A stretch of 62,740 nt of DNA, counting the filler, from Basidiobolus ranarum (taxonomy: Eukaryota), in the NCBI GenBank assembly GCA_040143965.1. It is 42 parts of 42 records of this genome, joined end to end, with 100 filler letters (N's around TTAATTAATTAA, not from the genome) between each part and the next. Parts side by side here need not be neighbours in the genome. Positions count along the whole stretch, not along the records: positions 38,984 to 40,378 come from JASJQH010005315.1; 41 more parts are not named here. The stretch is one strand, 5' to 3'. Below, one piece after another: positions 11,253-56,081 of this stretch. Below the pieces are notes generated by a model. It was not told where the DNA came from and ran no database searches. It worked only from the letters and a program-made list of their open reading frames with translations. How positions within the stretch are numbered: the first letter of the stretch is position 1; each line of letters opens with the position of its first letter. The position numbers were made by a program, and so were the translations under genes.

Positions 11253-11918
11253 TTAACAAGCCCCTATATCGACCCAAGCACTGCTAGTGTCGGGAGCCTG
11301 GCTCTGTGTCCACCATTGAGCCTTCCATAAGTGGCCCTTGTAGGTAACCTTTTGCGACTCGAAATATGCGGTTTGAGTATTCCAAGCCGCGACTCCATTG
11401 CAATTACCAGGATTTGGGCTAGATGTGGGTGTGGTACTTGCAGTAGTAGCGGTCGAAGGGATAGTTGTACTAGTAGGCTTAGAAGTGCCTGTTGGAGCAG
11501 AGGTTGTAGTAGGAGTAACATCCTTCCCGGGTCGGATTGTTATGGTTGGTCGTGCAGCCAGCAAGTCTCGACCATCATTGGGACCATTATTTGGGAATTC
11601 AGGGATGGTAGAATAACCCGGGAGATTAGCAACTAAAAGCTTTGGACCGGTTATATAACCATCGGTAGATCCTTGGATCTCAATATCAGCACAATTCATG
11701 TAATATTCCCGATTTCCAATCTTATTAATCCATGTCCAAGCAAAGATTACATTCTTACTGGAGCCAGCAGTACTTGGGATAGATACCGTATAATCCAATC
11801 CAGAAACAATACAGTTACTATATATTGTGTCTAAAACCGCGAATGTTTGACCAGCATCATACGAGATTGCAAATTGACAATGACCTCCACTATGAGTAGC
11901 TACTCCACTAAGTTTAAC
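11253..11918 (-). CDS. AA11-like lytic polysaccharide monooxygenase with Thr/Pro linker and C-terminal CBM5/12 chitin-binding module (5' truncated)
   Basis: Open frame to the contig edge: ATHSGGHCQFAISYD...FAWTWINKIGNREYYMNCADI; C-terminus AWNTQTAY...VTYKGHLWKAQWWTQ...W. Confidence 0.85.
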   Translation of the reverse strand, partial: VKLSGVATHSGGHCQFAISYDAGQTFAVLDTIYSNCIVSGLDYTVSIPSTAGSSKNVIFAWTWINKIGNREYYMNCADIEIQGSTDGYITGPKLLVANLPGYSTIPEFPNNGPNDGRDLLAARPTITIRPGKDVTPTTTSAPTGTSKPTSTTIPSTATTASTTPTSSPNPGNCNGVAAWNTQTAYFESQKVTYKGHLWKAQWWTQSQAPDTSSAWVDIGAC

Positions 11919-12018: not shown

Positions 12019-12794
12019 CTCATTTTTGTTGTAATTTCTTGATTTGCAATCTTTTACATGGTGTCCTGGTTTGTTACAACCATAACATGAACCTTGTGTC
12101 CTTCTTTTGTAACCTTTGTACTTGCCAAAGCTACATTTTCTAGCTCCAAAAAGAGCCACTTCCTCAGATTCTTTTTCCCAAATTTTTACTCCTGAGGTGT
12201 TGATCCATTAGCCTTGCTACCACAAACTCCAAAGACAAGTTGTCAGATCTTGCTTCCAAAGCAGTGACTAAGTTTGAATACTGTTCTGGTAGACTAATTA
12301 GAAGAGTCATAATGACATCTTCTTCCTATAGAGTTGCATCAATATTTTCCAGTTGTTTTGCCAAAGATCTCACATTTGCAATATGAGTAACCATGCTGTC
12401 AGACTTTTCCATCTTAATATCAAAGAATTTTTGCATGAGAGAGAGTCTATTAGCAAGACTCTTTGCTTCATAATACTCTTCCAATATAGTCAAATCTTGA
12501 TAGGAAGTCTTTGCATATTAAATATTCACAAGTTATGAATCCTTCAAACTTTGACAAATATCTTTAAAGCTATTCTTGTCTCTTTTCTTGTAAGCTTACA
12601 ATAAAGCAGGATCAGAAGGATCCTTTTTATCTCCAGAGACTCCATCCCAAAGCTCCCTGTCTTCCATCATCATTTGCATTTTGAACTTCCAGAAATAGTA
12701 ACTTTCTTCATCAAGATTTCAACACTTGAGTTAATAAAAGTGGTAGTAGTGATTTCTGTCATGCCGTAAAGGTTAGAATACAGGGCTCATAACC
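12019..12794 (-). mobile_element. Ty1/Copia gag with primer-binding site GGTTATGAGCCC (12783-12794)
   Basis: gag ATG 12762, WKFKMQMMMED, zinc knuckle CYGCNKPGHHVKDC; same family as 52416-53805. Confidence 0.92.
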
Positions 12795-13168
12795 TATTGG
12801 GAAAATATGGGCTGTTTGGAGGACCTTAGAACATGGAATTGAGAATAGCTTTGTGAGATAATTGTTTACTGTGCATAAATAGGGTATTTAAACATTTGGT
12901 GGAAATACTGAAAACTAATACTGGTGTTGTGTTCAGAACATCTGCAGGTGTAAAATGAGCTACTTTTGGGGCTATCTGGACAAGTTTGAAATTTCCAATA
13001 TGGAATTGCTAATTGTCACATTATTCACATATATATATAATATATATTCCTATTTGCAGTTAAGTGATAATTAACTAAGTAATGATAACTAACTTATATG
13101 TGATATATGAAATAGTTTGGTGTATAAAGGTAGAGATAACAAATATGATTAAGACATTAACTTCAACA
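12795..13168 (-). repeat. Copia 5' LTR family A (374 bp, TGTTG...CAATA)
   Basis: Abuts the PBS; second full copy at 45870-46247. Confidence 0.9.
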
Positions 13169-13519
13169 ATTATTACATTGGTGATATTTAATCCTTCTAC
13201 TTCCCTACATTGTCTACATAGGCAAGAAACATCTTCTCTCCCTAGACAATTGCTATTACTTCTATCCTTATTCAAAAGCCTACCAGTGGAGCTTACTGTT
13301 ATTTTCAATTAGATATATCCACTTTGTCTAATCATTGTCAAAGGATTGAAGTCAGTATGCTTTTATCAAGTGCCAGCATATCATTCAACAGAAACATGAC
13401 ATTACACTGTTGTTGTTCCNNNNNNNNNNNNNNNNNNNNNNNNNNNNNNNNNNNNNNNNNNNNTTAATTAATTAANNNNNNNNNNNNNNNNNNNNNNNNN
13501 NNNNNNNNNNNNNNNNNNN

Positions 13520-19519: not shown

Positions 19520-20535
19520 TTCAGGGGATTCCTCAGTGGTGGAGGTGGCTGATTCAGTTGTAGAGGGTGTAGCCTCAGGGGACTCCGCAGTGGTGGAGGT
19601 GACTGACTCAGTTGTAGAGGGTGTGGTCTCAGCGAATTCCTCAGTAGTGGAGGTAGGTTCCTCAGTTGATGTGATTGTAGTCATGGTGGTAGAGGTAGGT
19701 TCCGGAGTTGTAGAGGAAGGGAGGGATGCTAAGCCTTTGTAAGCTGGTAGTCTGTTACTGAGGCATTGAGCAACAGTAACGAATCGGTATCCCTTAGCCT
19801 TGATGTTGTCAATGATCGTTGGAGTTCTGTCAATACTGAACTTGTGGATATCATGCTGAAGTGATACCCAACTATCCTTGCTAGCGTCAGAGGGACCAAT
19901 CTTATTCATCATATTAACGATGAGTTGATCATACTGATCTGGCTTGCCCATGTATTTCCAGTCATCAGAATCGACGTTCCACTGAATAACAGTATACCCG
20001 AGTTCTTTCATCACTGCTTGGCAGTTTTGGTTGCAATTTCCGTAAGGAGGTCTCATCATAGCAGGAGCAACTCCGATTTTCTGTTGAATCTCAGCCTCGG
20101 TGTCGAGCATCTGTTGTCTAATCTGACTAGCGCTGAGGCTGCTCAAATCCAGATGATCATAGGTATGAGAAGCTATTTGGTGACCAGCGTCATAAGTCTG
20201 CTTAAGGAAATGTCCAATATGACTTTGGGCAACTTGAGATCCCAAGACAAAGAAAGTAGCCTTCACATTCTTCTCGCTCAAAATGCTGAGTAGGCTACCA
20301 GTATATTCACTTGGACCTACAGATTGAAAAAGAAGGAAATAAGTCAGGGATTGAAAGCATGAAACAAAAAAAGGGTAATAATCAATTTGAAGCAATGCTT
20401 ACCATCATCGAAAGTCAAAGCGAAGTCACCAGGCTTATCACACTTGAAGACGAAGCCGTTGCCAGAATCCTGAGCATTAGAAAGGTTTAGGAGTGCAGCA
20501 ACCAGTACTGAATATTGCAACAATGCTTTTGTCAT
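19520..20535 (-). CDS. Secreted CE4 (NodB) chitin/polysaccharide deacetylase with Ser/Thr/Glu-rich repeat tail; intron 20317-20402; 3' truncated
   Basis: Signal peptide; spliced TFDDGP, ATFFVLG, HTYDH, RPPYG, DSDDW, LQHD motifs. Confidence 0.95.
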
Positions 20536-22698: not shown

Positions 22699-23125
22699 AA
22701 ATCCCATATGAGAATGGAAGGAGGGAGCAGCATATTGGTGTAGCACCGGTACACCATTCTGAAAGTCTTGTATTATTATTGGGAGATGCACTAACTGATA
22801 ACTTGTTGCTTCAAAACACTATATGAATTGCAATATTGCTGCATTATTACTTGTCATAGCCTGTATAGCAACTTTGTAGCTTTTACTTTTGAAGGCATAC
22901 AGATCATTATATTTGAAGGTTGATGGCCTTGATGGTGTTTCTGTTGTGCTTTGCCCAACTATTGCTTAACTATGTAATTGGGGTATTATAATCTCTTCAC
23001 TTGCACTATTACTATAAAGGAATACATCTGGTAAATTGATTAATGCTTCATTGTTACTAGAGTCAGGGCCTGTCATATTAATGCCTTCCAAAGTGGATAG
23101 TGGATTGCCACACTGCTTATCAGTC
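22699..23125 (-). mobile_element. CACTA ORF2 fragment
   Basis: Matches 58375-58880. Confidence 0.8.
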
Positions 23126-24685: not shown

Positions 24686-25414
24686 CTAAGCCTTTGGGCG
24701 ACAAATCATTTGACCAATAGCCAGCTTATTACAATCAATACCTTTGTTACTCTTCAACAGTTTATCGAGGGTTACCTTCCAAGACTTCGCAATCTTATCG
24801 CAAGTATCTCCCGCTTTTACTGGAGACGCTTTCTCACCATTCTGGCAAAGTTGCGGGATACAAATTTGTTGACCAATCGCCAGTAGCTCGCATTTAACCT
24901 TGGGGTTAGCTGTCAAAAGTTTCTCAACACTGATGCCATTATTAGTTGCTATTACGGAGCAAGTATCACCGGACTTGATTGAGTAAGAAGTAGTGCCCGA
25001 AGCACATGCTGTTGGAGGTGTCGCTGTAGGTGTTGGAGATACTGAAGAAGATGGGACCACACTAGGTATGCACACAGCTTCACCTACCATCAATTGCTCA
25101 CATTTCATATTTGGATTAGCGGCTTGAAGATTCTCTACTGATATGTTAAACTTAACGGCTATCGCATAACAAGTATCCCCTGATTGTACTGAATATTGAT
25201 TGGTTCCTTTTTTGCAGCTTTTTGGAGGAGTAGGTGTCGAAGTAGCGGTGGTAGTGGTGGCAGTGGTAATCGTGGGGGTTCCATCTCCAGGACGGCATAT
25301 CAATTGACCAACATATAGACGGTCACAATCAAGGCCTGGATTGCTCTTCTGAAGTTGAGCTAGATTCACCATCCATGATTGAATGTACTTTGTACATGTA
25401 TCACCCGAAATAAC
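24686..25414 (-). CDS. Multi-LysM protein (at least 4 Cys-containing fungal-type LysM domains; 5' truncated)
   Basis: Four repeats of V/I-x-S/A-GDTC...N-P/K...C..L..G..IC separated by Thr/Pro/Ser linkers; open to the contig edge. Confidence 0.93.
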   Translation of the reverse strand, partial: VISGDTCTKYIQSWMVNLAQLQKSNPGLDCDRLYVGQLICRPGDGTPTITTATTTTATSTPTPPKSCKKGTNQYSVQSGDTCYAIAVKFNISVENLQAANPNMKCEQLMVGEAVCIPSVVPSSSVSPTPTATPPTACASGTTSYSIKSGDTCSVIATNNGISVEKLLTANPKVKCELLAIGQQICIPQLCQNGEKASPVKAGDTCDKIAKSWKVTLDKLLKSNKGIDCNKLAIGQMICRPKA

Positions 25415-25514: not shown

Positions 25515-26912
25515 TTTAGCCATTATTTCTGAATGTGGAAATGCTGATCTTTGTAATGGTGTGATAAATTTGGTTAGTGGGACAGCAGAGCCCAAACTCA
25601 CTGCCTCCATTGCTTTTCCCTTGGGTTTATTAGACTTCTGCTCCCTGAGTACTTCTTTAGCTGCTTTTCTTTCTTTTTCAAGTCAATAATTGAATACATT
25701 TTTGAGATTTTTCATGAAAAGGCCTATACTAGCCCAATTGCCATTTGCTTGCAAAAACTCAGCATAAGCCATATGAAATAATACAAAAATCTTAGAGTAA
25801 CACCTGGTTTTTGGTATTTCCATGATTTGCTCAAATCCAGGTGTTTTTGGGCAAGATTCTGCACAGTTTCCCTAATGTTAAACCACTCATCATCAGAGCA
25901 AGTGACAACAGCTCTGACATTTAGAGTCTGTTGGTTTGCCAGTTTTGTATATGTTTTTACTGTCATGTACCCAATCATTATTGGGGCTTTGTGTAGGCTC
26001 TACCACCTCACACATATTCTGCTCTGCTAGAGTGTCACAGTGATGATCATATGATTGGTGTGAGATAGATTGAAATCCTATATAAGAATATACAGAGGGG
26101 GCAGCATGTTGCTATAGCTCAAGTACAGCATTCTGAAGGTCTTGTATTGTTGTTGGGCATTATTAGTTTCTGGCAATTTTTGCAAAATACAATTTTTGAA
26201 GGGCAAATTACTAGGTTTGCTGCTGTAGAAATTTGAATTAATGTGCATGCCTGGACGTAGATATTTTGGCTTTGTTTTCCAGCCATAATGAGAATTAAAA
26301 AATACAAGAATCTTGTTGTGTTTAGTCTTGACATATGGACATACTTGACTGATCAGACATAACACAACAACATCAAAATGCTTTACAGCAAACTAAAGGT
26401 GAAAAAATTGCTAAACATCTGAAATTTTGAATAGAATCAACGCTTGGTAAACAGCTGATTCTTGTTACCATTTGCAATGAGAATAAGCTCTTGAATTTTG
26501 GCAAATTTCCATACAGAATTTGGCTAATATATCCCAGACTTGTAGTCAACAAATGTTCTGCCACAAGTAGGTGTGTCACTGCTTGAATAGTTTACCCCAT
26601 GGCCAAAACAATATTACTGCATATCCCAATCTCTCTCACAAAGAAGTCTGTCTTGCAGCTTTTCTAAAAGTACCATTAAAGTGTTATGCACACAAATTAG
26701 TTCAAATCAGAGAGGTACTCACTCTGTGTTCATGGATTGAGCTTGGTTGCTGTTATTGTGCCAAAAAATGCTAAAACCATGAGCACATTCAAAAGAGCCC
26801 TTTGTTGGAAGGTTAATATACTCTGGAGTCTCCTTAACCCATTGCATTACATCCTTCACTGATTTTGCTGATACATTGTAAATCAGATTAGCTTACAGTA
26901 TTACTGACAGTT
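25515..26912 (-). mobile_element. CACTA rearranged fragment: ORF2 middle joined at ~26155 to the transposase 3' region
   Basis: Matches 35230-35860 and 36020-36770. Confidence 0.85.
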
Positions 26913-34699: not shown

Positions 34700-35892
34700 A
34701 TGCCTTTCAAAAAGTATTTAAAATCTACATCAAAATTGGCTTCCAAGTCAAAGCCCACTGGCACAAAAGGAAAAAAACCAGCAGGAACAGAGGACTTAAT
34801 TGATGAACAGTCTGGCAATCCACTATCCATGTTGGAAGGCAATATCATGCTGGAAACTAGCCCAAGTAATGATGAAGCATTAATCAATTTACTGGATGTG
34901 TTCCTTCCCTGCAGTAGTGCAAGTAAAGAGATTGTAATCCCTTGATTATGTAGTACATCAATAGTTGAGCAAATTGCTACTGAAAACCATCAAGACTATC
35001 AACTTCAAAAATGGCTACTTTGCTCACTATTGAACTACCCTCTGCAGAAAATTTGGATAGAATTAATAAAACAAGGGAATTGCAGGCAGAACACCATAAT
35101 AATTTGTGTGTGATCATAAGTAAAAACTACAAAGTTGCTATATAGGCAATGCCAAGTATCAATGACACAATATTGCAATTAATGCAGTGCTTGGAAGCAA
35201 CTCATCAACAGTTAGAAAGTCACCCAACATTGATACAAGACCTTCAGAATGCTGTACTTGAGCTATAGCCACATGCTGCTCCCTCTGTCCATTCTTATAG
35301 GGGATTTCAATCAATCCCACACCATACATATGAATGTCACCAAGAAAATCTAACAGAGCAGAATACGTGTTGGATCATTAAGCCTACACAACAACCTGAA
35401 ATTGCTGGGGCACATGAAAGTTGAAATCTGTTAGGAAAACTGGCAAACCAAAAGACTCTGAATGTCAGAGCTGCCATCACCTGATCTGATGATGAGTGGT
35501 TTAACATTTTTGAAACTGTGTGGAATCTTTCCCAAACTCACCTAGATTTGAGCCAATCATGGAAAAACCAAAATCAGGCATTACTTCTAAGGTTGTTGAC
35601 TTATTTCATGTTACTTATCCTGGGTTTTTGCTACCAAAAGGCAATCGGGCTAGTATAGGCCTATTCATGAAACAGCTCAAATATAGGCACAATTATTGAC
35701 TTAGAAACAACAGAAAAGCAGCTTTTGAAGTACTCAAGAAGCAGGAAGTTAGTAAACCCATGGGAAAAGCAAAGGAGCCAGTGAGTTCAGGCTCTACTGT
35801 CCCACTTACCAAATTCTTCACACTACTACAAAGATCTGCATTTCCAGAGTCAGATATGCCAGCAAAAAAGCTTAATTTCACCATGGAACCAG
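34700..35892 (+). pseudogene. CACTA ORF2 (accessory protein), N-terminal ~400 codons, degenerate
   Basis: MPFKKYLKSTSKLASKSKP...; single frame broken by CpG-type stops; end overlaps 38984-39229, which overlaps 16400-16420. Confidence 0.75.
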
Positions 35893-38983: not shown

Positions 38984-39229
38984 AGCACTCTTCCAGCTGG
39001 TGTATCCAGTTCCATGGTGAAATTAAGCTTTTTTGCCAGTATATCTGACTCTGGAAATGCAGATCTTTATAATGGTGTGAAGAACTTGGTAGGTGGGACT
39101 GTAGAGCCAAAAATCACTGGCTTCTTTGCTTTTCCCTTGAGTTTACTAACTTCCTGCCCCTTCAATACTTCCTTAGCTGCTTTTCCTTCTTTTCCAAGTC
39201 AATAATTGCATACATTTTTGAGATGTTTC
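38984..39229 (-). mobile_element. CACTA ORF2 fragment
   Basis: Bridges 35690-35892 and 16400-16420. Confidence 0.85.
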
Positions 39230-39510
39230 TATTGGGATTATTTAGGGAGAAATATTGGTCTTGCCAGGATTTGAACCTGGGACCTCCTTCACTCTAGCAA
39301 GGTGCTCTAATCACTGAGCTACCAGTCCTTGTATGCTACACCTATATTTCTAGGGAACCCTAACCTAGTCTCTCAATGCATGGTACTTTGGCATTTCCGC
39401 TATACAAGCAACTGATTGGCCTTAGACTTTGTGCTCAGATGCAGTCACCATACTCCATATTTCCTCTTTGGGAATTACTGCTTGTACCACAAGTCACCAG
39501 ACTTTCAACA
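39230..39510 (-). repeat. 281-bp LTR-like element (TGTTGAAAG...CCCAATA) containing a tRNA-like sequence
   Basis: Sharp junctions with CACTA ORF2 (left) and Copia RNase H (right); termini like Copia LTR family A; partial second copy at 43466-43574. Confidence 0.8.
39256..39328 (-). tRNA. tRNA-like sequence (73 nt, anticodon position AGA, short variable loop) inside the LTR-like repeat; probable pseudo-tRNA
   Basis: D stem GCTC/GAGC, T stem CCAGG/CCTGG, B box GGTTCAAATCC; acceptor and anticodon stems have mismatches. Confidence 0.7.
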
Positions 39511-39620
39511 CTATTACTGTATTTGAAGATGATCAAAGTTGTATTTTGTTGGTTAAAAACCTTATATTCCATGATAGAACAAAGCATATAGATATTAGGC
39601 ATCATTTTGTCAGCAAAGCA
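39511..39620 (+). mobile_element. Ty1/Copia RNase H fragment
   Basis: ITVFEDDQSCI...RTKHIDIRHHF. Confidence 0.88.
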
Positions 39621-40378
39621 CCCTAACAGAAATTTGAGGATTGTTATTGTAGGAAAACTCTCACAATTTTAATCCATTTAGGATTGACTGTTTACTTACT
39701 GTCATAAAATCATCAAGTTAGATTTGATTTTAATCAATTTTTTCAGTTTCAGGAGTAAAATTTCAAGATCTCACAAAATAGTTGCACATGATTGGCTACA
39801 ATCTCAGAGAACTATGGATCAGCACATCTGCAAAAAACTTAACTCAAATTTTACACAATTACCACTTGAATGCTAATTTGTCACCTCTGAAATCCCTAGT
39901 CTCTTAGATATATTCTCATGAATAATTTTATAGAGTTCTTCATACTCGTGGTTTAGCTCATACCCAACATGAGCTTGCATCAATATCTCCATCAAAGCCC
40001 ACTATTGTCTTAATGTTGCTGAATCAACATTCTTCCAGCTATCTGGAGGGTACCCTACAATATTGTGCCACTCTGGATTATGTTCTTCCCAGATATCTGC
40101 ATGGTCAACACCAGACTGAATGTCAAGTTGAATGTTCTTCTTCTGAAGCCACTTTCTGCATACTTGCACTGCATTTTTCCCTTCATACTTTTGAAAATAC
40201 TCCTCAAGCACTTTGACTATTTTTGTACGTCCTTGTAGTGTGACACTACTGAGGGTGCTTTGCAGTGTTTGTGCGGCTTTTTGCTTGCCTTTACCTTTGG
40301 GACTAATTTCAACACTTTGAAAAGTACCAGTTGAGGTTGGAGAGCCGTGAGTTTTATTTGCTGGTGTTTTGGCTTGTT
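39621..40378 (+). mobile_element. CACTA left end with TIR and ORF2 C-terminal part (minus)
   Basis: Colinear with 15605-16365. Confidence 0.92.
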
Positions 40379-43364: not shown

Positions 43365-43465
43365 CNNNNNNNNNNNNNNNNNNNNNNNNNNNNNNNNNNN
43401 NNNNNNNNNTTAATTAATTAANNNNNNNNNNNNNNNNNNNNNNNNNNNNNNNNNNNNNNNNNNNN

Positions 43466-43574
43466 TAGCATACAAGGACTGGTAGCTCAGTGGTTAGAGC
43501 ACCTTGCTAGAGTGAAGGAGGCCCCAGGTTCAAATCCTGGCCAGACCAATATTTCTCCCTAAATAATTTCAATA
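43466..43574 (+). repeat. 3' end of the tRNA-bearing LTR-like element, second copy (ends TTTCAATA)
   Basis: Reverse complement of 39230-39338, including both tRNA flanks. Confidence 0.85.
43476..43548 (+). tRNA. tRNA-like sequence (73 nt, anticodon position AGA, short variable loop) inside the LTR-like repeat
   Basis: GGACTGG-TA-GCTC-AGTGGTTA-GAGC-A-CCTTG-CTAGAGT-GAAGG-AGGCC-CCAGG-TTCAAAT-CCTGG-CCAGACC-A. Confidence 0.75.
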
Positions 43575-43739
43575 GATCAAAATTATGACACCATTAAGGT
43601 TTTGAGTCTGGAAGTGTGGCCTCAAATAAAAAGGTGCTTCTTACAAAACAAGAGATCATTGATGATAGATAAATGGCAGTACAGGTTCAAGCTTGAGATG
43701 TCTTTGGGTGTTTCCTAGGCTTTCTTTACCATTCACAAG

Positions 43740-44858
43740 GAGAATAAGTTTTGGGATTTATTCAAATTTCCATAAAGAATTCAGTCAATATAACCCCATC
43801 TTAGAGTCAACAAATGTCCTGCCACAAGTAGATGTGTCATTGCTAGAATAGATTACACCATGGTTAAAACAATAATACTGGATATATTGATCTATCTCAC
43901 CAAGAAGTCTGTCTTGCAGCTTTCCTAGAAATATTGTCAGATTAAGACACAAACAAATGAGTCTAAATTATAGAGATGCTTATTGTTTGTTCATGGATGG
44001 GCTTTGTTGCTGTTACCGTGCTCAAACAATGCAAAGACCCATGAGCTCATTGAATGGAGCCCATTGTTGGAAGGTTAATATACTCTGGAGTCTCCTTCAT
44101 CACATTGCATCCATCACTGATTTTGCTGATACATTGTTAATCAGATTTGCATATGGTAATACTGACTATTTCACAAAGAGCATCATTTTGCAGCAGGTGC
44201 ACTCCATTGTGAAATCCTAGAATGTACTGCATGGGCCTATAATCTCTGAGCATTGTGAAAGATGCAGCAGGGAAAGTATGGAATACTGGCATAGATTCAG
44301 TCTATCCTCTTCAAACCTGTAATATTGTTTTTTATCCCCAATCAGAAAATCTTTGCACTGTTGCTGTATCTGGCTGAGATCTGCCAAAGTGAGTTGATGC
44401 CATAAGAATATATTAACAATATCCACAAACAACTCCCAATGTTGCCAATACTTATCAGGCAAAATCTCTTAAAGATTCTACTCGAATATATATAGATCCA
44501 ATACTTCCAGTCTTTGCATATGAATAAAAGGCTAGATGAGTAGATATTGAAGGGAGTCCTGAAGATGTATGATGGTATCTTGATGATTACCAGCATTTTC
44601 CCAATTGGTTCAAACTTTGATTCCATCTTGAATGGCTTACTCATATTGAATTTTCCACTACAAAGCTGGGTAAATAGTATTGGAATATTGTTAATTAATA
44701 AGTGAATAGTGCCTGATGGGAAGCTCTGGCTCTAGCTGATCCCCTTTAGCAATATAATCTTAGGCTTACAGTTAATACCAAGTTTGATGTTGGACTGACT
44801 ATTTGGTGAATTGATATCAGTGATCAGGTCAAAATTTGACTGGGCTCTTGATGGTAAA
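43740..44858 (-). mobile_element. CACTA transposase core/3' fragment (a short Gypsy piece matching 1345-1400 lies at ~43670-43725)
   Basis: Reverse complement of 49838-50824. Confidence 0.88.
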
Positions 44859-45869: not shown

Positions 45870-46259
45870 TGTTGAAGTTTGATGTCTCTATCACATTTGT
45901 TATCTCTATCTTTATACACCCAACTATTTCATATATCACATAAAAGTTAGTTGACATTAATTAGTCAAATATCACTTAGCTCAATATTGGAACATATGTT
46001 ATATATGTATGTGATTAATGTGAGAATTAGCAGTTCCATATTGGAATATTCAAACTTTTCCTAATTGCGCCAAAGATAGCTCATTTTACTCCCACAGATG
46101 TTCTGAATACTATCCCAGTGTTAGTTTTCTGTATTTCAACCAAAATGTATAAATGCTTTATTTATGGTCAATAAATACTTATCTCACAAAGCTATTAACA
46201 ACTCCACTTTTCTAACATTCCTCCAAATAGCCCATATTTTCCCAATAGGTTATTAGCCT
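45870..46259 (+). repeat. Copia 5' LTR family A (45870-46247) and PBS GGTTATTAGCCT
   Basis: Colinear with 12783-13168. Confidence 0.88.
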
Positions 46260-49433: not shown

Positions 49434-50824
49434 TGCATTGGCTCTGGATGGTTTCTCACTAAACAAATATACCATTGGAAAGGCTTGCTGGCCAATAATT
49501 TTAATCAACTTAAATCTTCCTCCTTCTGAATGGTATAAGAGTCATAATATTTTGATACTATCCATCATATCTGGACCTAAATCACCAGTGCTTATAGATA
49601 GCTTCTTGGAGCCTTTGATTGTGGAATTTGAACGGTTATCTAATGGGGTTCAGATGGGTGAATATTTTATTAAAGCTAATATCATTGTATGTATTGGTGA
49701 CACTCCTGCCATCAGTAAACTTGGAGGTTTTTGCAGGCACAATGCACTATCTTGCTGTAGATTTTGTCAAATCAATGGAGTTTACTCTAACAGGCATACA
49801 CATTACTACTATCCAAATACAACACTAAACTTCATGATTTTACCATCAAGAGCCCGGTCAGATTTCAACATGATCACTGATATCAATTCACCAAATAGTC
49901 AGTCTAACATCAAACTTGGTATTAGCCATAAGCCTAAGATTATATTGCTCAAGGGGACCAGCTGGAGCCAGAGCTTCCAATTAGCCACCATGAACTTACT
50001 ATTTAACAACATTCCTATACTACTAACTCAGCTATATAGTGGAAAATTCAATATGAATGAGCCATTCAAGATAGGATCAAAGTTTGTATTGATTGGGAAA
50101 ATGCTTGAAAACATCAAAATACCATCATATTTTACCAGGACTCCCATTGATATCCGCCCATCTAGGCATTTATTCAAATGCAAAGACTGGAAGTATTGGA
50201 TTTGTATATATTCAAATGGAATTTTGAAAAGATTTCTGCCTGATAAGTATTGGTAACATTGGGAGTTGTTTATGGATATTTTTAATATATTCTTATGGCA
50301 TCAACTCACATTGGTAGATCTCAGGCAGATAAAGCAACTGTGCAAAGATTTTATAATTGGATATGAATCACTTTATTACAGGTTTAAAGAAGATAGACTG
50401 AATCTATGCTGGTATTCAATACCTTCCCTGCTACATCTTTTCACAATGCTTAGAGATTATAGGCCCTTGCTATACATTCTGGGAGTTGCCAATGGAGTGC
50501 ACCTGTGGTGAAATGATGCTCCATGTGAAATCATCAGTATTACCATATACCAATCTGATTAACAATGTATCAGCAAAATCAGAGACGGATGTAATGCAAT
50601 GGGTTAAGGATACTCCAGAGTATATTAACCTGCCAACAAAGGGCTCTTTTCAATGTACTCACGGGTTTTTGCATTGTTTGAGCACAATTACAGCAACAAA
50701 GGCCAATCCATGGACACAAAGTAAGTACCTTTATAATTGGACTAATTTGCTGTGTGATAATCTGACAGTATTTTTAGGAAAACTGCAAGACAGACTTCTT
50801 GGTGAGATAGATGGAGATACACAG
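49434..50824 (+). mobile_element. CACTA/EnSpm Tnp2-type (Transposase_21) catalytic core, nearly intact
   Basis: LALDGF...CWPIILINLNLPP...ISGPKSP..IDSFLEPLIVE, GDTPAISKLGGF..HN...CRFC, downstream DUF4218-like HSLLHL...GP...W..PME. Confidence 0.93.
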
Positions 50825-52415: not shown

Positions 52416-53805
52416 CCACTTTTGTTACCTCATGTGTTGAAAGGCTTGATGGAGTACATTACAATTTCTGGCAGTTCAAGATGCAAATCATGCTGGAAGA
52501 TAAGGAGCTTTGGGATGTAGTCTCTGGAGATAAAAAGGAACCTCCTGACCCTTCTTTATTGGAAGCTTACAAGAAAAGAGACAAGAAGGCCTTTAATGTC
52601 ATTTGTCAAAGTTTGAAGCTTTCACAACTTGTCAATATTCAATATGCAACAACCTCCCATCAAGCTTGGAATATATTGGAAGAGTGTTATGAAGCAAGCA
52701 GTTTTGCTAATAGACTCTTTCTCAGACAAAGATTCCTCATTATAAAGGTGGAAAAGTCTGCAAGCATGGTTACTCATATTGCAAATGTGAGATCTTTGGC
52801 AAAACAACTGGAAAATATTGGTGCAACTTTACAAGAAGAAGATGTAATTATGACTGTTCTAAGTAGTCTACCAGAAAAGTATTCAAACTTAGTCACAGCT
52901 TTGGAAGCAAGATCTGACAAGTTGTGTTTGGAGTTTGTGGTTGCAAGGCTAATGGATCAACACCTCAGAAGTAAGAACTTGGAAAAAGAATCTGAGGAAG
53001 TAGCTCTTTTTGGAGCTGTAAAATGTAGCTTTGGCAAGCACAAAGGTTACTAAAGAAGGAAGCCAGGCTTATGCTATGGTTGTAACAAACCAGGTCACCA
53101 GTTAAAAGAATACAAATCAAGAAGTTACAACAAAAATGAGAAGTCAGAACAAGCAAATCAGGTTTAAACTAAAGAGGAAGTTTTAATAATATCTGCCCTA
53201 TCAGTGACCTCTGAACAAGACTGTAGGTTTTGGTATATTGATACTGGAGCCTCTCTACATTTCTCAAATCAAAAAAACTGGTTTAAGACACTCAAAACTG
53301 ACATAAATAAGGAGGTCTATATATGAGATGAACAGCCACCATAAGCTCAGGGAGTGGGAGAAGTTGTAGTGGATCTTGGAGGCATCTCTGGGGACATGCA
53401 TTTGACACTGAAAAATGTGCTACAGGTGCCCAGGATAGCAAAATATTTGTTATCAGTGAGTAAAGCTACATCTGAGGGATATATCCTTAATTTTAATCAA
53501 AATGGCTGTGCAATCAGGGATTGAAAAGGGAAATATGTAGCTTCTAGAGCGAAGCAAAATAACTTGTATAAACTGCATTATATTAGGCCTTATATGTACA
53601 AGTTAATACCGCCACAGCTGAAGAGATAGACTGGAAAATCTGGTGTAGGAGATTAGGTCATCTAGGAGCTGAAAATATGAGAAGTTTAATCAACAGCACA
53701 ATGTTTTTGGGACTAGGTTTTGTATTTCCACCGGATCTAGAGCTATGTGAAGGTTGCCTATATGGTAGGCAACACAGACAGCCATTTGTGGGCTCTAGAA
53801 TGAGC
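52416..53805 (+). mobile_element. Ty1/Copia gag-protease-GAG-pre-integrase
   Basis: 190-aa gag ORF 52481-53053, CYGCNKPGH, WYIDTGAS, RRLGHL...CEGC. Confidence 0.94.
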
Positions 53806-55395: not shown

Positions 55396-56081
55396 ACAGG
55401 CCCAAAAGCAACCAAAAGCTATTCTATTCTGGCAAGTACAAAGCCTACTGTGTAAAGTTCCAGGCTTTGACAGATTTGGAAGGAAACATCATTTGGTTTA
55501 GTGGGCAACATCCAGGGAGACACCATGACAAAAGGTTTTGGGTTGAGGGGTATGCACCATTTGTAAGATGTGAGAAGACTATAGCTGATTTGGTATATGA
55601 TGGGGAAGAATGCAGAAGGCTAGGATATGTCACTGCTAACAAGAGGCCCAGAGGAGGGATACTCACAGAGAGGCAACAGCTCTATAATGACATTTTTCCC
55701 CATTTTAGAGCAAGAGTAGAACATAGCTTTGGTTTCCTAAAGATATATAGCATTGTAGCAGGAAAGTATAGAGGAAAGTCATGTTGTGGGCCTCAATCAA
55801 AGTTAGGAAAAGTAGTCAAAATCTTGATTAATTCTCAACACATTCATACTCACAGATATCCATTGAGAGCTCTAGACTTAAGACACTATGAATGAAGCTT
55901 TCATCATCTTTTGAATGTGCAATAATGTCTAAAAGTACTTTTCATAAATATACCACATAGGTAAAAAAAACTGTTTCCAAAGTGGTAAATAACACCATGC
56001 CAGATAGTGCCCAATCAAGCCAATTTGTGCTGGCATGCTTTTTAGCTGGCCTGATCTGGCTCAATAAAATGGAATAAGTCT
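55396..56081 (+). mobile_element. PIF/Harbinger-ISL2EU-type DDE_Tnp_4 transposase C-terminal half (open to TGA at 55895) and 3' TIR
   Basis: YYSGKYK..CVKFQ, PGRHHD, IADLVY, RARVEHSFGFLK; ends ATGGAATAAGTCT. Confidence 0.9.

Follow-up and report, generated by a model that had tools for sequence, protein, structure and literature searches.

Helenus elements, as defined by Kojima (2024, Biology 13:119; PMC10886601), are TRIMs that carry a tRNA-derived sequence in their LTRs, and they have been grouped with Cassandra and Ajax, both of which carry 5S sequence, under the name TRIMp3. A Helenus element is 311-1263 bp long in total and has a PBS and a PPT, its two LTRs enclosing a short internal region without coding sequence; LTR lengths named range from 120 to 323 bp, fungal members have 5-bp TSDs, and many Helenus elements are left only as solo LTRs. 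The tRNA-derived part has a conserved box A (TRGCY...YGG) and box B (GGTTC), and the proposed origin of the group is the insertion of a SINE into a TRIM LTR. Most of the tRNAs predicted in Helenus are non-functional, and rust genomes hold hundreds of spurious "tRNA-Thr-AGT", "Ser-AGA" and similar predictions that stem from it (PMC10886601, Table 2). The elements are apparently mobilised by Copia, and a PBS of the initiator-tRNA anticodon-loop type is dominant both in fungal Helenus and in their Copia partners. Among fungi, 113 families are reported from Pucciniales and a few from Agaricomycetes (PMC10886601), so an earlier note on this DNA was mistaken in supposing that no fungal family like this had been described.

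Within TRIMp3, Pol III transcription has been shown only for Cassandra. Quite a few of the LTRs in Repbase hold tRNA-like pieces, only some of them belonging to TRIMs, and the defining mark of SINE2 elements is a tRNA-like head that has A and B boxes (PMC10886601). The screen that defined Helenus was seeded from Repbase LTRs, not from all genomes, and the main text of PMC10886601 has no occurrence of Basidiobolus, Zoopagomycota, Mucoromycota or Ascomycota. In those parts of the literature that were accessible, no report of tRNA-bearing LTRs in Basidiobolus was found.

The locus described here, from Basidiobolus ranarum, resembles Helenus in having a tRNA-like sequence, with both box motifs, within a short repeat that is probably an LTR, its 281 bp falling within the 120 to 323 bp named for that group. 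The tRNA type that is predicted, Ser(AGA) at 73 nt and without a long variable arm, has its counterpart among the non-functional types predicted in Helenus, which include "Ser-AGA". The host is likewise a fungus rich in Copia, and the co-resident Copia has a PBS that we read as being of the initiator-tRNA anticodon-loop type. The likeness is one of structure, and the locus differs from Helenus in lacking, within the DNA analysed, paired LTRs, a PBS, a PPT and a 5-bp TSD. It also differs in its host, a Basidiobolus, whereas the fungal reports come from Pucciniales and a few Agaricomycetes.

The locus appears to follow the design of Cassandra, in which a gene for a small RNA, complete with its internal Pol III promoter, sits in the LTR of a non-autonomous LTR element (PMC10886601). 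Cassandra, however, is a plant element with a 5S module and reported Pol III transcription, whereas the unit here is tRNA-like and known from its sequence. The earlier note had cast the repeat as an LTR with a tRNA-like gene of its own, an analogue of Cassandra; the tRNA-like sequence and the LTR termini bear this out in part, but a paired LTR, PBS, PPT and TSD were not found. SINE2 elements, among them fungal families such as AfuSINE2 of Aspergillus fumigatus (PMC5063351), are similar in having a tRNA-like head with A and B boxes and in being short and dispersed among transposons. In SINE2, though, the head is at the 5' end, whereas here at least 10 shared nucleotides precede the tRNA-like part (182 nt in the full copy), and the 3' end of a SINE2 is A-rich or LINE-derived, whereas here it is an LTR terminal motif.

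The two tRNA-like copies

The window, that is, the whole stretch of DNA that was analysed (positions 1-62740; 62,740 nucleotides), is a pseudo-molecule of 42 unrelated contigs of 1,388-1,403 bp, arranged in descending length. A scan for N runs found 82 runs of 44 N, set as N44-TTAATTAATTAA-N44 linkers between the contigs (for example, at 43366-43465). Since the contigs are joined by artificial linkers, neighbourhood and distance across a linker are meaningless. The tRNA-like features and the contigs that hold them are as follows.

38984-40378: contig with the full 281-bp unit
39230-39510, minus strand: LTR-like unit, 281 bp, reading TGTTGAAAG...CCCAATA on the minus strand
39256-39328, minus strand: tRNA-like sequence, the more decayed copy (Rfam RF00005, 49.9 bits, E 1.1e-07)
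43466-44858: contig with the second tRNA-like copy
43466-43574, plus strand: second copy, with 10 nt of leader sequence, then the tRNA-like part, then a tail of 26 nt whose last bases are CAATA
43476-43548, plus strand: tRNA-like sequence, the better-kept copy (Rfam RF00005, 58.6 bits, E 4.2e-10)

ARAGORN found exactly two tRNA-like genes in the window, both of them Ser(AGA) and 73 nt long, and a whole-window Rfam scan taken to an E-value of 5 added no other tRNA-like sequence (the Rfam gathering score for tRNA is 29, and the E-values given are whole-window values). Weak Rfam matches to "Plastid-ycf2" opposite both copies, scoring 27.2 and 23.7 against a gathering score of 65.7, were dismissed as the antisense of the tRNA-like shape. 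In the unit, the tRNA-like part occupies positions 183-255 of the minus-strand read and is followed by 26 nt to the 3' end. This tail, ATATTTCTCCCTAAATAATCCCAATA, contains neither poly(A) nor a simple repeat.

The B box is GGTTCAAATCC in both copies. The A box is TAGCTCAGTGG at 43476-43548 and TAGCTCAGTGA at 39256-39328; the A and B boxes given in the earlier note for the unit were thus right as regards the B box, but the A box it stated belongs to the second copy only. TAGCT and GGTTC are present in both copies, and the TGG of box A is found only at 43476-43548, the corresponding triplet at 39256-39328 being TGA. The latter copy has a G-to-A change in its A box, plus a broken acceptor pair; its Rfam alignment shows three non-standard pairs, two of them in the acceptor stem and the third in the anticodon stem. 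Both copies have mismatched bases in these stems, A-A in the acceptor and G-G in the anticodon stem. The minimum-energy fold is a cloverleaf for 43476-43548 only, and then with the A-A acceptor mismatch; neither copy folds better than its shuffles (z -0.82 for 39256-39328 and z -0.03 for 43476-43548). The place and length of the 73-nt cloverleaf noted previously, 26 nt before the 3' end of the unit, hold good, but the word "full" does not, given a Ser anticodon without a long variable arm, the stem mismatches and the lack of a cloverleaf fold in that copy.

The variable loop is 5 nt long, with no long variable arm. A tRNA-Ser requires a long variable arm (it is a class II tRNA), and because the sequence is 73 nt long, lacks this arm and has mismatches in its stems, it is probably not a working tRNA-Ser, or indeed a working tRNA of any kind. 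Past the tRNA-like part, the unit contains no stretch of four or more T, just as had been noted before; the first such stretch comes 52 nt after the tRNA-like end in the second copy and 143 nt after it in the first, in both cases outside the unit.

How much of the repeat do the two copies share? The second copy matches 39338-39228 at 106 of 111 bases (E 2e-46), after which the two diverge, and the DNA downstream of the second copy is unrelated to that downstream of the first. Its start at 43466 is the start of its contig (the N run ends at 43465), which leaves just 10 nt ahead of the tRNA-like part for comparison, and all 10 are the same in both. The 3' end, ...CAATA, is common to both copies in two unrelated contexts. 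The second copy had been described as having the same tRNA, the same flanks and the same CAATA end; the 106 matching bases and the CAATA end confirm this, but the upstream flank is compared over those 10 nt only, up to the contig start. Similarly, the suggestion that the tRNA travels with the repeat agrees with the two contexts and the common 3' end, but for the repeat as a whole there are one full unit and one cut copy. Variable ends or poly-A/T tails had been named as a sign against an LTR: the CAATA end is fixed in two of two copies and there is no poly(A), the 5' end being seen in one copy only.

The full-length unit occurs once in the window, at 39230-39510, and its upstream 172 nt are likewise seen once. 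A sensitive blastn search (word size 7, E up to 10) found no third or decayed copy of the unit in the window, returning the two known copies and chance-level matches, with nothing further better than E 0.1. Outside the window, metagenome contigs were scanned twice for exact matches to 25-nt pieces of the element, and neither scan gave any.

The contigs of the window are rich in repeats, with at least 60 direct-repeat families and 1,054 inverted pairs. On one of them, two copies of a high-copy repeat terminus (1612-1943 and 2478-2906) face outward around a 535-bp centre, an arrangement that could be head-to-head insertions or a long-TIR element. Among the intact reading frames of the window, Pfam matches were obtained to LysM (four), Polysacc_deac_1, CBM_5_12, PTR2 and PEPCK_ATP, and, in the same set of frames, to the transposon domains Retrotran_gag_2 (Copia gag), RVT_2 (Copia reverse transcriptase), tnp2 and DDE_Tnp_4. 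The PTR2 frame is 100% identical, over 80% of its length, to a B. ranarum protein and 85% identical to a protein of B. meristosporus, its next matches being in Entomophthorales and Mortierellaceae; these matches point to a Basidiobolus-like, early-diverging host, and a rust fungus, considered for a time, was rejected, as was a plant. Three intact, apparently intron-free frames on unplaced 1.4-kb contigs, at 24689-25414(-), 19520-20398(-) and 11256-11918(-), have as their products a four-LysM protein, a polysaccharide deacetylase (chitin-type) whose tail is Ser/Thr-rich, and a CBM5/12 protein. Transposase fragments are found at 49435-50253(+) (tnp2 family, CACTA/KDZ-like) and at 55398-55892(+) (DDE_Tnp_4, PIF/Harbinger-like), and tnp2-like sequence is also present at 43890-44858, on the contig of the second tRNA-like copy.

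Termini, junctions and flanking repeats

The ends of the unit are best viewed together with its flanks and with the Copia LTRs found elsewhere in the window.

39009-39229, no strand assigned: repeat X, unclassified, broken exactly at 39229 and 84-85% identical to 35889-35669 and 25515-25713
39507-39619, plus strand: C-terminal fragment of a Copia-type RNase H, ...TVFEDDQSCILLVKN..HDRTKHIDIRHHF (tblastn against 37206-37093, E 1.2e-09)
39620-40378, plus strand: repeat Y, starting sharply at CCCTAACAG (a start also given as CCCTAACAGAAATTTGAGG)
8478, 15605, 18553 (minus strand), 37281, 45462 (minus strand) and 61003: other copies of repeat Y
12019-13419: contig with the comparison Copia LTR
12795-13168, minus strand: Copia 5' LTR, 374 bp, TGTTGAAG...CCCAATA, with the PBS GGTTATGAGCCC directly after it at 12783-12794 and gag-like sequence beyond
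45870-46247, plus strand: another 5' LTR from this Copia family, 378 bp, with GGTTATTAGCCT directly after it at 46248-46259

The termini of the unit, TGTTGAA...CCCAATA, are those of the LTRs at 13168-12795(-) and 45870-46247(+); the earlier note had recognised the first of these correspondences, and the second extends it. Over the whole window and both strands, TGTTGAA is found at 36 and CCCAATA at 14 of ~125,000 strand positions. A terminal inverted repeat of the TGTTG...CAACA type is usual for Copia LTRs, and the TGTTG...CAATA of the unit is an imperfect one. The two Copia LTRs are themselves anchored by the sequences that follow them: the PBS motif GGTTATGAGCCC, allowing up to two mismatches, occurs in the whole window only at 12783-12794, at 46248-46259 and at one unrelated site, and, downstream of the first LTR, the stretch 12173-12715 is 88% complementary to 52445-52987, which lies inside a Retrotran_gag_2 reading frame. 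We take GGTTATGAGCCC and GGTTATTAGCCT to be complementary to the anticodon stem-loop of the initiator tRNA-Met (half-tRNA priming) rather than to a tRNA 3' end.

Between its termini, the unit is a different sequence. It gives no blastn match to the 374-bp Copia LTR, and an alignment of the two agrees at the termini alone; with no internal similarity either, the unit was rejected as a homologue of that LTR. The stretch 23459-22777, which had seemed a possible third LTR sharing these termini, proved to be pieced together from several repeats and was not used as evidence. To judge from its ends, the unit resembles an LTR that the integrase type of the Copia LTRs would recognise, with a tRNA-like module near its 3' end. 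The LTR reading is the best supported one because both of the junction-defined ends carry the terminal motifs of PBS-anchored Copia LTRs from the same genome.

Both junctions of the 281-bp segment had been called exact. This is true of the left one (39229/39230), past which the left-flank repeat continues for 444 bp in two further copies, but the right one is approximate, lying within ~4 nt of the point where homology to Copia RNase H begins (~39507 by tblastn). The left flank had been taken for CACTA ORF2, a reading that finds no support, as none of five reading frames from the three copies of this unclassified repeat matches Pfam. On the right, Copia RNase H had been said to resume at 39511. 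An RNase H-like piece is indeed present at the junction, but it spans only ~39507-39619, and repeat Y takes over from 39620. The TVFEDDQSCILLVKN..HDRTKHIDIRHHF motif is one that we assign to the RNase H of Ty1/copia elements; the fragment at 39507-39619 has no Pfam match. Repeat Y is present in seven copies, all of which, when aligned, have a common start point and different upstream flanks, and its reading frames (124-204 aa) contain no Pfam domain.

Elsewhere in the window (25515-26157, 35223-35892 and 22699-22777), repeat X is immediately preceded by a CCCAA(C/T)A motif, a ATACAAGACYTTCAGAATG being conserved there; it may be the leader of another LTR element with the same kind of LTR terminus. 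The possibility that the unit is the 5' LTR of this left-flank element was considered and rejected, as repeat X is broken internally at the junction (444 bp more being present in two copies) and no PBS follows the unit.

The flanks of the full unit are thus two different repeats, and no target-site duplication surrounds it, the sequence being AATAG upstream and GAAAC downstream. Within its 1.4 kb, the contig at 38984-40378 changes repeat family four times. Flanks that come from different repeats, together with the absence of a TSD, imply that this contig is a recombinant, a nested mosaic or an assembly chimera. It records two different insertion junctions, for which two copies would have to have recombined, or else a nested mosaic or a chimera assembled through the repeat would be required.

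Paired copies around a PBS and PPT, with 5-bp TSDs, were sought in the window, and none was found beside either tRNA-bearing copy. The unit has no partner in the form of a direct pair of copies in the window, and no PBS motif GGTTATGAGCCC (up to two mismatches, whole window) adjoins either copy, the contigs being 1.4 kb long and one copy cut. Nor does a purine tract adjoin either copy in these 1.4-kb contigs, absence here not being absence in the genome; upstream of the unit, in the minus-strand sense, there is antisense Copia coding sequence instead of a purine tract. No internal region is attached to either copy in the window, where a TRIM and an ordinary LTR are not separable.

Probable origin and proposed mobility of the unit

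What kind of element is the 281-bp unit? It is on balance probable that it is one LTR, either solo or parted from its partner, of a Copia-mobilised LTR retrotransposon that has a tRNA-derived Pol III promoter module and is of the Helenus (TRIMp3) kind. Another way of producing such a sequence would be a tRNA-derived SINE2 of ~110 bp or more, moved by a LINE and composed of a short leader, a tRNA-like head and the 26-nt tail, the upstream 172 nt then being landing-site DNA. It is true that only the 111-bp part around the tRNA-like sequence is common to both copies, that a tRNA-like head with A and B boxes is what marks a SINE2 (PMC10886601), and that no TSD or LTR pairing contradicts the idea. 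However, a tail with neither poly(A) nor a simple repeat, ending in the LTR motif CCCAATA of this genome, is not what a SINE2 would be expected to have, and at the far end of the 281-bp segment TGTTGAA begins right at the break in Copia homology. Both copies also agree over at least 10 nt ahead of the tRNA-like +1 (the second being cut at that point). A direct repeat around the tRNA-like part, TCCCTAGAAATA/TCCCTAAATA, was examined as a possible TSD of a SINE inserted into the LTR and rejected as not significant, 587 of 5000 shuffles being as good. A SINE2 origin is consequently unlikely. We consider it similarly unlikely that the unit is the LTR of an ordinary, longer LTR retrotransposon in which a captured SINE or tRNA pseudogene no longer has a promoter role. 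Such an element would account for termini shared with an autonomous Copia and for the decay of the tRNA-like part in one copy, and only some of the tRNA-containing LTRs in Repbase belong to TRIMs (PMC10886601); on the other hand, 281 bp is short and in the TRIM range, and the box motifs have been kept in the better copy.

The quality of the contig itself has to be weighed as well, since the "unit" could be a mosaic, created by assembly or recombination in a low-quality, unplaced 1.4-kb contig, in which a small tRNA-like repeat came to lie beside unique sequence. Every one of the 42 pieces in the window is a short contig packed with fragments of repeats, and the four changes of repeat family in 1.4 kb and the mismatched flanks would fit. 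To have both LTR terminal motifs fall at two independently defined junctions would, however, be hard to achieve by a random mosaic, and this explanation appears quite improbable. That the sequence is a genuine nuclear tRNA gene with conserved flanks, either duplicated or surrounded by transposons, is scarcely credible: in spite of the high Rfam score and of A and B boxes close to consensus in the better copy, it combines a Ser anticodon with the lack of a long variable arm, has the A-A acceptor and G-G anticodon-stem mismatches in both copies, and folds no better than shuffled sequence. Moreover, an identical 26-nt trailer is followed by an abrupt break into transposon fragments, and no T-run terminator is present within 50 nt.

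If the unit is a Helenus-type LTR, then, by analogy with Cassandra and Helenus, the complete element would have a second LTR, a PBS and a PPT, and would be transcribed by Pol III and mobilised in trans. In the 5' LTR, TFIIIC and Pol III would make use of the A and B boxes inside the tRNA-like part, and the transcript would start near the tRNA-like +1, which is LTR position 183. Since the LTR has no T-run terminator, the polymerase would presumably carry on over the remaining 99 nt of the LTR, then over the PBS, the short internal region and the PPT, and would pass through the 3' LTR to enter the flank. An autonomous Copia could then supply, in trans, the proteins that reverse-transcribe this RNA and integrate it, and these would recognise the shared TGTTG...CAATA ends. 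The earlier note also proposed that the captured tRNA may act as a TFIIIC-bound shield against silencing.

This kind of element has already been published, including from fungi, and it is the host record that is probably new: the unit is probably a Helenus-like LTR in Basidiobolus, a lineage without an earlier report in the main text of PMC10886601. The stronger claim, that an early-diverging fungus (Zoopagomycota) harbors a Helenus-type (TRIMp3) element with a tRNA-derived Pol III promoter, living as a parasite of Copia far outside the Basidiomycota lineages reported so far, is possible but more doubtful, and we put it forward tentatively. Were it confirmed across the genome, it would extend the LTR elements with Pol III promoters (Cassandra, Helenus and Ajax) to an early-diverging fungal lineage and add a data point on how frequently SINE-like promoter modules are recruited into LTRs. 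Programs that search for tRNAs would mistake copies of this kind for tRNA-Ser(AGA) genes, as happens in rust fungi (PMC10886601, Table 2), and such elements may therefore inflate the tRNA gene predictions in these large genomes. If the claim is true, then either the design was born independently in this lineage, or its distribution among fungi is much older and wider than is currently known.
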